A DNA stretch of 64,000 bases, from the NCBI RefSeq assembly GCF_030013205.1, contig NZ_CP122648.1; one strand, written 5' to 3'. Shown one piece after another: positions 27,295-35,856 of this stretch. Under the pieces are notes generated by a model that saw only the letters and a list, made by a program, of their open reading frames with translations, was not told the origin of the DNA and searched no databases. Made by a program: the position numbers and the translations under genes. Each line of letters begins with the position of its first letter. Position 1 is the first letter of the stretch. This DNA comes from Escherichia coli (GTDB taxonomy: Bacteria > Pseudomonadota > Gammaproteobacteria > Enterobacterales > Enterobacteriaceae).

Positions 27295-29994
27295 ATGCGT
27301 AAATATCCTTTAAGTTTACTGAAGGATAAAAATATTGTGACTTTTTTTGATTTCTGGGGAAAAACCCGACGCGGCGAGAAAGACGGGGGCGACGACTATC
27401 ACCTTCTTTGCTGGCATTCGCTGGATGTAGCCGCGATGGGCTATTTAATGGTTAAAAGCAATTGCTTCGGGCTGGTTGACTATTTTCGTCAACTAGGTTT
27501 CGCTGATACGGAGCAGGCAGCACAATTTTTCGCCTGGCTATTGTGCTGGCACGATACTGGAAAATTTGCCCGCTCTTTTCAGCAACTTTACCTGCACCCA
27601 CAACTCAAGGTTCCGGAAGGCGCAAGAAAGAATTACGAAAAGATCTCTCATTCAACGCTGGGCTACTGGCTGTGGCATCATTATTTAAGTGAATACGAAG
27701 AATTGCTTCCTTCATCTTCACTCTCTCCGCGCAAACTTAAACGGGTGATGGAGATGTGGATGCCCATGACTACCGGGCATCATGGTCGGCCCCCTGACCG
27801 TATTGATGAACTGGATAATTTTCTGCCTGAAGACAAAGCTGCCGCACGAGATTTTCTCCTTGAAATCAAGGTACTGTTTCCGCTCATCGAGATCCCCGCA
27901 TTCTGGGATGATGACGAGGGCATTGAACTTTTAAAACAACTTTCCTGGTATATCTCTGCAACCGTCGTACTCGCAGACTGGACGGGATCGTCAACGCGGT
28001 TTTTTCCACGCGTTGCACAGGCAATGGATATTAAAGATTACTGGCAGAAGGCTTTAGTTCAGGCTCAAAACGCCTTAACCGTCTTTCCTCCAAAAGCACA
28101 AACCGCGCCTTTCACCGGAATTAATACACTGTTTCCTTTTATTGAGCACCCGACACCGTTACAGCAAAAGGTGCTGGATCTGGATATCAGCCAGCCAGGA
28201 CCGCAGTTATTTATTCTGGAAGATGTGACTGGCGCAGGTAAAACAGAAGCGGCGCTTATCCTGGCGCACAGGTTGATGGCTGCGAGGAAAGCACAGGGTT
28301 TGTTTTTTGGCCTGCCAACAATGGCAACGGCCAATGCCATGTACGATCGGTTGGTCAAAACCTGGCTTGCTTTCTATTCTCCAGAATCTCGCCCCAGCCT
28401 GGTGCTGGCACACAGTGCCCGCACATTAATGGATCGCTTTAATGAATCACTCTGGTCCGGTGATTTAGTCGGGTCAGAAGAACCGGATGAACAAACGTTC
28501 AGTCAGGGATGTGCGGCCTGGTTTGCCGACAGTAACAAGAAGGCGTTGCTGGCTGAAATTGGCGTCGGCACTTTGGATCAGGCGATGATGGCGGTGATGC
28601 CGTTCAAACATAATAATCTGCGGCTTCTGGGGCTGAGTAATAAAATCCTGCTGGCTGATGAGATCCACGCCTGTGACGCTTACATGTCATGCATTCTTGA
28701 AGGGCTGATCGAGCGGCAGGCGCGTGGCGGAAACAGCGTCATTTTGCTTTCTGCCACGTTATCTCAACAGCAGCGCGACAAACTCGTTGCTGCCTTTGCG
28801 CGTGGTACAGAGGGCCAGCAAGAAGCTCCGTTCCTGGAAAAGGATGATTACCCCTGGCTGACGCACGTTACGAAATCCGATGTGCATTCACACCGGGTAG
28901 CGACGCGCAAAGACGTTGAGCGTAGCGTGAGCGTGGGTTGGCTTCATAGCGAACAAGAATGTATTGCGCGTATCGAATCGGCAGTAAGTCAGGGGAAATG
29001 CATCGCCTGGATCCGGAATTCTGTCGATGACGCTATTAAGGTTTATCGTCAGTTGCTTGCCCGCGGCGTCATTCCTGCTTCCAGCCTTTCTCTGTTTCAT
29101 AGCCGCTTTGCTTTTAGCGATCGCCAGCGAATTGAAACGGAAACGCTGGCACGCTTCGGTAAAAGTTGTAGTTTACAGAGATCATCGCAACTCATTGTTT
29201 TTACACAAGTAATTGAACAAAGTGTGGATATTGACCTGGACGAAATGATATCCGACCTGGCCCCTGTTGATTTGCTGATCCAACGGGCGGGGCGATTACA
29301 GCGGCATATCCGCGATATTAATGGTCAGTTAAAGCGTGACGGAAAAGACGAGCGTTCCCCTCCTGAATTGCTGATTCTGGCCCCCGTCTGGGACGACGCT
29401 CCAGGTGACGAATGGTTCGGCAGTGCCATGCGTAACAGTGCATATGTCTATCCCGATCATGGACGAATCTGGCTGACGCAGCGTGTACTGCGTGAGCAAG
29501 GCGCGATTCAAATGCCACACGCAGCCCGCCTTCTTATTGAATCAGTCTACGGTGAGGACGTGGTAATGCCGGAAGGATTTGCCCGCAGCGAGCAGGAACA
29601 AGTGGGCAAATATTACTGCGATCGCGCAATGGCTAAAAAGTTTGTGCTGAACTTCAGGCCCGGCTATGCCGCCAATATCAACGATTACCTCCCGGAAAAA
29701 CTGTCGACACGTCTGGCTGAGGAGTCTGTTTCCCTGTGGCTGTCTACCTGTATTGCCGGTGTGGTGAAGCCTTATGCCAACGGTGCTCACGCATGGGAAA
29801 TGAGCGTTGTCAGAGTGCGTCGAAGCTGGTGGAAAAAACATCGGGATGAGTTTTCTTTACTGGAAGGGGATGCGTTCAGGCAGTGGTGCATTGAACAGCG
29901 GCAAGAGCCGGAGATGGCAAACGTGATTTTAGTCACCGATGACGAAAGTTGCGGGTATTCGGCTATGGAAGGATTGACTGGCAAGGTTGGTTGA
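27295..29994 (+). CDS. cas3: CRISPR-associated nuclease/helicase Cas3 (type I-E)
   Basis: 899-aa ORF; HD nuclease motifs (HLLCWHSLD, WHDTGKF), helicase Walker A (VTGAGKTEAA) and DExH-like box (LADEIHACD). Confidence 0.9.
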   Translation: MRKYPLSLLKDKNIVTFFDFWGKTRRGEKDGGDDYHLLCWHSLDVAAMGYLMVKSNCFGLVDYFRQLGFADTEQAAQFFAWLLCWHDTGKFARSFQQLYLHPQLKVPEGARKNYEKISHSTLGYWLWHHYLSEYEELLPSSSLSPRKLKRVMEMWMPMTTGHHGRPPDRIDELDNFLPEDKAAARDFLLEIKVLFPLIEIPAFWDDDEGIELLKQLSWYISATVVLADWTGSSTRFFPRVAQAMDIKDYWQKALVQAQNALTVFPPKAQTAPFTGINTLFPFIEHPTPLQQKVLDLDISQPGPQLFILEDVTGAGKTEAALILAHRLMAARKAQGLFFGLPTMATANAMYDRLVKTWLAFYSPESRPSLVLAHSARTLMDRFNESLWSGDLVGSEEPDEQTFSQGCAAWFADSNKKALLAEIGVGTLDQAMMAVMPFKHNNLRLLGLSNKILLADEIHACDAYMSCILEGLIERQARGGNSVILLSATLSQQQRDKLVAAFARGTEGQQEAPFLEKDDYPWLTHVTKSDVHSHRVATRKDVERSVSVGWLHSEQECIARIESAVSQGKCIAWIRNSVDDAIKVYRQLLARGVIPASSLSLFHSRFAFSDRQRIETETLARFGKSCSLQRSSQLIVFTQVIEQSVDIDLDEMISDLAPVDLLIQRAGRLQRHIRDINGQLKRDGKDERSPPELLILAPVWDDAPGDEWFGSAMRNSAYVYPDHGRIWLTQRVLREQGAIQMPHAARLLIESVYGEDVVMPEGFARSEQEQVGKYYCDRAMAKKFVLNFRPGYAANINDYLPEKLSTRLAEESVSLWLSTCIAGVVKPYANGAHAWEMSVVRVRRSWWKKHRDEFSLLEGDAFRQWCIEQRQEPEMANVILVTDDESCGYSAMEGLTGKVG

Positions 29995-30091
29995 GATGCC
30001 TGCGACAGGGCTCTCTGAATAGTTGATACACCGAAAAGGATGGAATGATGGACAACCGACCAGGGATGGTCTTTTTTACGAGAGGATGCGT

Positions 30092-34646: not shown

Positions 34647-35566
34647 CGTTTGTACCGCTGAGCCCGATCCCATTAAAAGATCGCACCTCTATGATCTTCC
34701 TCCAGTACGGTCAAATCGACGTACTGGACGGCGCTTTCGTGTTGATCGACAAAACCGGGATCCGCACGCACATTCCGGTGGGATCGGTCGCCTGCATTAT
34801 GCTCGAACCGGGAACGAGAGTTTCCCACGCGGCGGTGCATCTGGCCGCCACGGTGGGAACACTGCTGGTCTGGGTCGGTGAAGCGGGCGTTCGCGTTTAC
34901 TCTTCCGGACAACCCGGAGGGGCGCGGGCAGATAAATTACTCTACCAGGCAAAGCTGGCTTTAACGGAAGATCTACGCCTGAAGGTGGTGCGTAAAATGT
35001 ATGAATTACGTTTTCGTGAGCCACCGCCAGCTCGCCGTTCAGTGGAGCAGCTACGTGGAATTGAGGGATCCCGCGTTCGCCAGACGTATGCATTACTGGC
35101 GAAACAATATGGTGTGAAATGGAATGGTCGCAAATACGATCCTAAAGACTGGGAAAAAGGCGATGTTGTGAATCGCTGCATCAGTGCTGCCACATCATGT
35201 CTGTACGGTATTTCTGAAGCGGCAGTATTAGCCGCGGGATATGCGCCCGCTATTGGATTTATCCATAGTGGCAAACCGCTTTCATTTGTTTATGACATAG
35301 CCGATATCATTAAATTTGATTCGGTTGTGCCAAAGGCATTTGAAATAGCAGCGAGGCAACCCGCAGAACCAGATAAAGAAGTCAGGTTGGCCTGTCGTGA
35401 TATTTTCCGTAGCAGTAAGTTAACGGGCAAATTAATTCCGTTAATCGAGGAAGTGCTTGCCGCAGGTGAAATTGAACCACCACAACCCGCGCCGGATATG
35501 TTACCGCCTGCCATCCCTGAACCTGAAACGCTGGGCGATAGCGGTCACCGGGGACGCGGCGGATGA
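34643..35566 (+). CDS. cas1: CRISPR integrase Cas1
   Basis: probable GTG start at 34643 overlapping the cas6e stop (track ORF starts at a TTG at 34607); conserved Cas1 sequence. Confidence 0.85.
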
Positions 35567-35856
35567 GTATGGTCGTCGTTGTTACAGAAAATGTCTCTCC
35601 GCGCTTACGTGGACGGCTCGCGATCTGGCTCCTGGAAGTGCGTGCCGGTGTTTATGTCGGAGATACGTCCAAACGTATTCGGGAGATGATCTGGCAGCAA
35701 ATCTCTCAACTGGCAGGTTGCGGAAATGTGGTAATGGCCTGGGCGACCAATACCGAGTCGGGTTTTGAATTTCAGACCTGGGGTGAAAATAGACGTATTC
35801 CGGTGGATTTGGATGGGGTGCGTTTGGTTTCTTTTCTTCCTGTTGATAATCAATAA
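35563..35856 (+). CDS. cas2: CRISPR adaptation protein Cas2
   Basis: 97-aa ORF overlapping the cas1 stop ([19 protein letters not shown]). Confidence 0.85.

Follow-up and report, generated by a model that had tools for sequence, protein, structure and literature searches.

Probable Transcription of cas3 and the Cascade Genes as One Unit

[quoted passage not shown] The locus is probably, in our moderately confident reading, transcribed mainly as one unit that runs from cas3 to cas2 and begins in an AT-rich region upstream of cas3, and the junction appears to be the cargo-less allele of a polymorphic site. The initial annotation had proposed that cas3 is co-transcribed with the genes of Cascade (by family membership, expected to consist of Cse1, Cse2, Cas7, Cas5, and Cas6e); our analysis leaves this as the most plausible interpretation, although weak promoter-like and terminator-like motifs inside the junction count against it.

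Several observations favor a single unit. The genes downstream of casA are tightly packed, with intergenic distances of −19 to +14 bp, and the gene overlaps noted earlier proved exact: 4 bp for cse1/cse2, 19 bp for cas5/cas6e, and 4 bp each for cas6e/cas1 and cas1/cas2. In the nearest non-Escherichia loci, those of Citrobacter youngae, C. sedlakii, Klebsiella grimontii, Phytobacter ursingii, and Salmonella enterica subsp. diarizonae, cas3 and casA are separated by only 10–11 bp, and the Shine-Dalgarno sequence of casA lies inside the coding sequence of cas3. Such spacing in the sister genera favors a single unit here. The distance in the window was recomputed as 97 bp, as first reported, and the junction offers an ordinary GC content, no significant structure, and no repeat-like or AT-rich regulatory block, which again favors a single unit. 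Its RNA folding showed no excess structure compared with shuffled controls (z = 0.09). No repeat-like element was found in it, as nothing outside the two CRISPR arrays of the window matched the repeat with three or fewer mismatches and the best matches reached 12–13 of 29 positions. An Rfam scan of positions 26000–37000 returned only sok and a sub-threshold ctRNA match at the cysH terminator, leaving the junction blank. The conservation of the junction (94–98%) is no different from that of the flanking coding sequence (93–98%).

A further argument for a single unit is that the AT-rich block lies upstream of cas3 and not upstream of casA. It occupies positions 27102–27294 (plus strand; 193 bp), and its AT-richness, already pointed out in the initial annotation, is borne out by a GC content of 28.5% across the region and 21% across its final 150 bp. 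On the basis of this composition, we propose it as the main promoter and H-NS-type silencing region. It is densely populated with sigma-70-like sites scoring 6–8.4, the best of which is TTAATT-17-TATTAT at 27164–27192. The region upstream of cas3 is AT-rich in most of the relatives compared as well; the GC content there is mostly 23–33%, with 39% in Enterobacter ENT03 and 56% in K. indica.

Published data on the replacement of cas3 in Salmonella also favor a single unit. In S. Enteritidis, replacing cas3 raised the expression of cse1 through cas2 by 7–20 fold, and in S. Typhimurium, cas3 has been described as part of the cas operon, the arrangement being described as contiguous in such Salmonella strains. 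Papers on K. pneumoniae and Serratia describe either cas3 as repressed by H-NS or all of the cas genes as expressed, and map no operon.

Transcription would thus start in the AT-rich region just upstream of cas3, where H-NS-type silencing is suggested by base composition, and would read through the 97-bp junction, while casA would be translated from its own ribosome-binding site. The start of casA at ATG 30092 is supported by a Shine-Dalgarno sequence, GAGAGGA, 5 nt upstream, by a match to the TIGR02547 model from residue 5 of that reading, and by the aligned N-termini of homologues.

Certain points weigh against a single unit. The Salmonella evidence for read-through comes from other strains and not from the E. 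coli 97-bp junction, and the only Salmonella junction measured here, that of diarizonae, is 11 bp long. The increase in S. Enteritidis may also reflect the promoter of the resistance cassette. S. Typhi has internal promoters in its cas genes and five transcription units, in a different cas variant. In addition, the junction of the window contains a promoter-like site whose score is higher than the window's 99.9th percentile, together with a hairpin that has a run of T residues behind it, each of which is considered below.

A Possible Promoter or Terminator within the Junction

Could casA have a promoter of its own? In such a case, casA–cas2 would be transcribed separately from cas3, from a promoter in the junction or at the 3′ end of cas3, and would be under separate control. 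There is precedent, since both K-12 and S. Typhi have a casA-specific promoter and transcribe cas3 apart. A strict consensus scan found no promoter in the junction and none even in the AT-rich region upstream of cas3, so it is too insensitive to decide the matter. A position-weight-matrix scan, which is permissive and yields candidates only, picked out one weak site at 30023–30049 (plus strand), TTGATA-15 nt-AATGAT, with the high-percentile score mentioned above (8.0). However, its 15-nt spacer is short, and the −10 element AATGAT is the product of an 8-bp tandem duplication at 30036–30053 (GGATGGAATGATGGAC vs. GGATGGAC) that is present in the 97-bp E. coli junction, whereas E. albertii and Escherichia sp. 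MOD1, with their 89-bp alleles, do not have it. The strict scan is blank at this site, its surroundings are neither AT-rich nor furnished with a regulator-binding block, and every other site within the final 500 bp of cas3 scores 4.4 or less. Moreover, a transcript starting at ~30056 would at once meet the hairpin and its T-run. Because the promoter-like site lies upstream of the terminator-like one, their order is the wrong one for terminating the cas3 transcript and restarting at casA. We therefore regard separate transcription of casA–cas2 as unlikely, while giving it appreciable weight.

The hairpin, GACCA-GGGA-TGGTC followed by T6 at 30058–30077 (plus strand), was picked up by a terminator scan and may be either a terminator-like site or an element of the casA 5′ untranslated region. 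That it is an intrinsic terminator or attenuator ending most cas3 transcripts, so that Cascade would be expressed less or hardly at all, is very improbable: T6 is kept in every short allele inspected, but the stem has only 5 bp and a folding energy of −7.0 kcal/mol vs. −17.6 kcal/mol for the cysH terminator, the hairpin does not appear in the minimum-free-energy fold of the junction, its fifth pair is broken without compensation in several E. coli and E. albertii, the number of terminator-like sites in the region is near chance (7 observed vs. 4.0 ± 1.9 expected, within ~1.6 standard deviations), and in the long alleles described below, a similar hairpin with an interrupted T-run lies ~20 nt upstream of casA and must be read through to reach that gene. 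The promoter prediction and the search for a promoter and terminator inside the junction, both suggested in the initial annotation, gave weak candidates of both kinds, neither of them well conserved, and transcription as one unit from upstream of cas3 is retained as the preferred reading.

The junction also contains a 16-codon upstream open reading frame (ORF), MMDNRPGMVFFTRGCV, read from the sequence at 30045–30095 (plus strand), whose TGA overlaps the ATG of casA. The 8-bp duplication gives this small ORF a better-spaced start. It is open in all of the alleles inspected, and the O157:H7 allele carries two non-synonymous changes in it. We considered it as a relic of CreT, the small toxin discussed below, and rejected the idea, as it is unlike CreT in sequence and the substitutions in it are not all synonymous.

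Relation to K-12 and to Published Variants

The window is E. coli by sequence, and the 9.9 kb around the cas locus are 100% identical to E. coli ETEC1748 (NZ_CP122719.1). The coordinates of the genes are agreed upon by the ORF listing, the RefSeq annotation of NZ_CP122719.1 made with the Prokaryotic Genome Annotation Pipeline (PGAP), and the NCBIfam models. All eight Cas proteins pass their type-specific NCBIfam models over their full length, and none of the eight genes within 27295–35856 has an internal stop. The string of eight genes is, by these measures, an intact CRISPR-Cas locus of type I-E in the canonical order, as had been annotated. The layout runs cysJIH, hok/sok, cas3, cse1, cse2, cas7, cas5, cas6e, cas1, cas2, a leader with a CRISPR array, and then iap on the opposite strand.

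K-12 has the same type I-E system with the same eight genes, order, strand, and chromosomal site between cysH and iap, and its CRISPR repeat differs from that of the window by one base. The genes that border the locus, cysH and iap, share 99% identity in the two strains. The Cas proteins, on the other hand, are not closely related throughout. We aligned each of them, as the initial annotation had advised, with its counterpart in a K-12-type genome, and the identities were 29% for Cas3, 21% for Cse1, 30% for Cas7, 35% for Cas5, and 27% for Cas6e, while BLASTP detected no similarity between Cse2 and K-12 CasB. The effectors are thus 21–35% identical or not detectably similar, compared with 85% for Cas1 and 84% for Cas2. 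By these sequence comparisons, the cas genes of the window are of a different lineage from those of K-12.

The two loci also differ in what separates cas3 from casA. In K-12 MG1655, the spacer is 414 bp long with a GC content of 29%, compared with 97 bp and 49.5% in the window. The statement in the initial annotation that K-12 has a much longer gap is therefore correct, the 414 bp being AT-rich and forming the known H-NS/LeuO-controlled Pcas region, and the alternative that the K-12 gap might be equally short does not hold. According to published accounts, the K-12 spacer holds Pcas, sites for H-NS, LeuO, and CRP, and a regulatory mini-array; none of these elements is found in the window junction. 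Nor does the window have a spacer of the K-12 regulatory type, that is, one longer than 200 bp, AT-rich, and upstream of casA. In the K-12-type spacer, we found a degenerate repeat, CCTTCCCTACTTAAGTAGGGATAAACCG, at ~6243–6271 of the K-12-type locus record, on the strand opposite to cas3 and with 19 of 29 positions matching the CRISPR repeat. This repeat agrees with the published K-12 regulatory mini-array, and it resembles the second repeat-like element of the cassettes of E. coli MS 69-1 and Citrobacter rodentium described below.

Two E. coli variants have been published as "var. K-12" and "var. B-8552" (Microorganisms 2025, PMC12736100), and the cas gene lengths of the window are those given for var. 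B-8552 in Table 1 of that paper. In Salmonella, variants were named "cas-STY" and "cas-STM," the latter being the type of Salmonella, Klebsiella, Citrobacter, and Shigella (Kushwaha et al. 2020, PMC7712790); the cas-STM genes are contiguous, and more than 600 Escherichia, Shigella, and Klebsiella strains carry the cas-STM type (PMC7712790). In the window, just as in cas-STM and var. B-8552, the cas genes adjoin one another and cas3 points the same way as the rest. The diverged effectors, the Cas1 and Cas2 identities of ~85%, the cysH–iap site, and the contiguous cas3 and cse1, which mark the non-K-12 or cas-STM variant, are all seen in the window. On these sequence features, the locus belongs to this published variant, and its architecture has already been described.

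The S. Typhi cas-STY system (Medina-Aparicio et al.) is also of type I-E and has a cse1-to-cas2-CRISPR operon under H-NS and LeuO. It is, however, a different cas variant, in which cas3 is reported to be on the complementary strand, with a 357-nt gap and its own transcription.

The Short Junction in Other Genomes

Is a short gap between cas3 and casA unusual? The initial annotation implied that it is, which our survey contradicts. The junction is exactly 97 bp long in all five diverse E. coli compared, including O157:H7, O113:H21, and O121. At least 80% of the cas locus was found in 2409 of 5426 complete E. coli genomes, and the 97-bp junction itself in 2429 of the same 5426. Across species, a scan with a Cas7 profile, taking one genome per species, gave 80 loci, 53 of which have cas3 upstream on the same strand. 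The gap in these 53 has a median of 69 bp and extremes of −20 and 3127 bp; it is 25 bp or less in 22 of them and more than 150 bp in another 22. [quoted passage not shown] The 97-bp gap is, as far as the sequences compared go, real but not exceptional: it is the typical I-E arrangement and that of a common published E. coli variant, and K-12 is the atypical one.

Within the cas-STM variant, on the other hand, Escherichia differs somewhat from its neighbors. The gap is 89 bp in E. albertii and Escherichia sp. MOD1, and the Escherichia junctions of 89–97 bp have a separate Shine-Dalgarno sequence for casA, in contrast to the 10–11 bp of the nearest other genera. The window Cas7 is 83–88% and Cas3 ~70% identical to the proteins of Klebsiella, Salmonella, and Citrobacter.

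The scan brought up a few side observations. Five related I-E loci have their best Cas3 match downstream of Cascade, ~2.3–3.7 kb past Cas7 and encoded on the other strand. For about a dozen Gilliamella loci, the retrieved flanks (up to 8 kb per side) yielded no cas3. These loci indicate that cas3 does not keep a fixed place across this Cas7 clade. A 7-kb contig in a metagenome-assembled genome of Collinsella sp., an actinobacterium, carries the E. coli cas locus with 97–99% protein identity and the 97-bp junction, which almost certainly reflects contamination during binning.

Decay is evident in many of the E. coli genomes that carry this variant. There are IS421 insertions under the match to the cas locus; cas3 is frameshifted or truncated in CB209, O121 RM8352, and MS 69-1 (a frameshift in the last); and in some genomes deletions leave only a cas3 fragment and the array.

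A Polymorphic Junction with Long and Cargo-Less Alleles

The cas3–cas8e junction is a known site of small regulatory modules. Of bacterial I-E loci, ~19%, K-12 among them, have CreR RNAs or mini-arrays there (Liu et al. 2023; Shmakov et al. 2023). The C. rodentium CreTA module, in which a small toxin is silenced by Cascade with a crRNA-like RNA (one resembling a CRISPR RNA), lies in the cas3–casA spacer as well (Nat Microbiol 2025). C. rodentium has the same cas variant as the window (Cas7 84% identical) at the same cysH–iap site, with the cassette at this very junction. Its spacer, however, is 495 bp long and holds a 32-amino-acid CreT ORF and a repeat-like CreA, neither of which is present in the window. 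No CreT-like toxin gene was found in the window junction, within which no ORF of 12 or more codons ends. Unlike the CreR mini-array loci, the window junction has no repeat-like element; mini-array autorepression of Cascade is therefore not available to this allele.

E. coli strains with the same variant, on the other hand, do carry such modules. About 15 E. coli genomes have junction alleles of 429–465 bp with a CRISPR-repeat-like mini-array. The 465-bp spacer is identical in seven genomes, including MS 69-1 (NZ_CP146675.1; 2499–2963 of the locus record), and comprises a hairpin next to the end of cas3, an element on the opposite strand that resembles the CRISPR repeat (23/29), and a 32-amino-acid ORF, MEEKTSRCKRLFCRLMVRFGKRLSVSFQLSVN, which is homologous to the C. 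rodentium CreT toxin, MQEESTRFKCLFLRMMVRLGKKLSISFQLSLH. The 429-bp allele occurs in three genomes, such as E. coli 06-00048 (1499–1927 of the locus record), and the 450-bp allele in five, such as E. coli ECNB21-M121 (901–1350 of the locus record). Both have the same hairpin and mini-array but other cargo, with no CreT homologue; in the 450-bp allele, there is a hydrophobic ORF of 46 amino acids, MLSIFLLQLVLSLLSKRQTKFDFRITFNVFSFIRLRLSLQLNLKIW, which could be a different toxin. The repeat-like matches in the long alleles are 23–25 of 29, compared with 19 of 29 in K-12 and 12–13 of 29 in the window junction. Outside E. coli, a complete CreTA-like spacer, 500 bp in length, is present in K. spallanzanii (2165–2664 of the locus record). 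The carriers of CreT homologues identified here are C. rodentium, K. spallanzanii, and E. coli MS 69-1. In K. indica, the gap is 151 bp (5761–5911 of the locus record) and only the 3′ part of the toxin ORF is left, fused to the cas3 stop. This truncated CreT ORF shows that deletions of the cassette do occur.

The window junction is clearly homologous to two of these alleles only. A collinear alignment with the 429-bp and 450-bp E. coli alleles gave z = 10.3, whereas alignments with the spacers of C. rodentium, K. spallanzanii, and K. indica and with the 465-bp allele were not significant (z = −0.2 to 1.5). Local matches of 15/16 and 11/11 nt to the three CreTA spacers were also considered as direct similarity, but they are non-collinear and were judged marginal. 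The right 46 nt of the junction (30046–30091) match the 450-bp allele at 45 positions and the 429-bp allele at 39. At the left border, the 6 nt GATGCC are common to the window and the long alleles and are followed by what looks like half a hairpin, similar only to the 3′ arm of the one that follows cas3 in the long alleles (20 of 1000 shuffles were as good, p ~0.02). In the middle 34 nt, no homology to the long alleles was detected (481 of 1000 shuffles were as good). Since the borders are shared and the cargo is absent, we interpret the window junction as a cargo-less allele.

Did this allele lose a cassette, or did it never have one? It is conceivable, short of being likely, that the 97-bp junction is a deletion scar of a Cascade-guarded cassette made up of a CreA/CreR-like mini-array RNA, a small toxin, and the casA promoter region; the cassette would have been present in the ancestor of the Escherichia form of this variant and kept by C. 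rodentium, K. spallanzanii, and ~15 E. coli genomes. Of similar probability is the reading that the 97-bp junction is the ancestral empty site and that the alleles of 429–500 bp arose by insertion of a mini-array/toxin cassette. An empty site would agree with the lack of detectable similarity in the middle 34 nt, with the short allele being by far the commonest and common to E. albertii, and with the even shorter gaps of 10–11 bp in the sister genera. It does not readily account for the half-hairpin-like sequence after GATGCC, and the K. indica gap with its truncated CreT ORF is an example of the opposite process. In a small neighbor-joining tree, both outgroups and the two earliest-branching Escherichia sequences have long alleles, which also speaks against an empty ancestor, although this tree is weak and has no support values.

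Implications for Regulation

The regulation of E. coli CRISPR-Cas is known almost wholly from K-12, through H-NS silencing, LeuO activation, CRP, and the spacer mini-array. What really sets the variant studied here apart from K-12 is the missing regulatory spacer with its mini-array, and nearly half of the sequenced E. coli, O157:H7 and enterotoxigenic strains among them, carry this variant. The K-12 rules are, consequently, not simply transferable to them. In strains with this variant, the levels of the nuclease and of Cascade are probably coupled.

If the junction is a deletion scar, the loss would extend to nearly all E. coli with this variant, which make up ~45% of the complete genomes that were searched. 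It would have cost them the addiction function as well as Cascade autoregulation, and Cascade expression would hang on read-through from a silenced cas3 promoter. Such a loss would help explain the inert-looking, decaying system of natural isolates. The allelic series of the E. coli junction (97, 429, 450, and 465 bp) is a modest starting point for tracing how modules of addiction and autoregulation come and go.

Cas Proteins, CRISPR Arrays, and Neighboring Genes

The individual genes are all on the plus strand. The cas3 gene (27295–29994; 899 amino acids) encodes an HD nuclease and superfamily 2 helicase, with matches to TIGR01587 (224.6 bits) and TIGR01596 (87.7 bits), both above the cut-off. 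Its conserved residues include H86 and D87 of the HD domain, K316 of Walker A, D455 and E456 of the DExH motif, and S486 and T488 of motif III. It is followed by cse1/casA (cas8e; 30092–31654; 520 amino acids; TIGR02547, 607 bits, full-length), cse2/casB (cas11e; 31651–32187; 178 amino acids; TIGR02548, 105 bits, full-length), cas7e/casC (32202–33257; 351 amino acids; TIGR01869, 448 bits), cas5e/casD (33268–34014; 248 amino acids; TIGR01868, 158 bits), and cas6e/casE (33996–34646; 216 amino acids; TIGR01907, 287 bits), whose catalytic histidine is kept as H30. The adaptation genes are cas1e (34643–35566; 307 amino acids; TIGR03638, 381 bits), with E141, H208, and D221 kept, and cas2e (35563–35856; 97 amino acids; TIGR01873, 129 bits). 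The catalytic residues known from K-12 are thus all kept in Cas3, Cas1, and Cas6e of the window.

Downstream of cas2 (35857–36347; plus strand), an AT-rich leader at 35857–35952 is followed by the CRISPR array at 35953–36347, which has seven repeats and six spacers and is also marked by PGAP as a CRISPR feature. The repeats, GTGTTCCCCGCGCCAGCGGGGATAAACCG, recur with a 61-bp period (29-bp I-E repeats and 32-nt spacers), and a degenerate terminal repeat lies further on. Judging by family membership, the array transcript would be cut by Cas6e, targets would be degraded by Cas3, and new spacers would be added by Cas1–Cas2. Interference guided by CRISPR RNA and spacer acquisition are accordingly predicted from the intact ORFs and the kept catalytic residues. 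A search of phage and plasmid collections with the whole array matched only other CRISPR arrays through the repeats, and it is therefore uninformative on spacer targets.

Between cysH and cas3, and outside the cas operon, lies an intact hok/sok toxin–antitoxin locus at 26806–27101 (plus strand). The sok RNA was recognized by Rfam RF01794 (107.5 bits) at 26806–26963, and a Hok/Gef family coding sequence at 26949–27101, encoding a Hok protein of 50 amino acids, is annotated in NZ_CP122719.1. At the equivalent place in K-12, the annotation lists the sokX RNA alone, and the distance from cysH to cas3 is 358 bp, compared with 612 bp in the window.

A second CRISPR array with five repeats of the same sequence was observed at positions 9979–10251 of the window, ~17 kb upstream of cas3, and is presumably the ygcE–ygcF array of E. 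coli. A solitary degenerate repeat lies ~500 bp beyond it, at 10757–10783.

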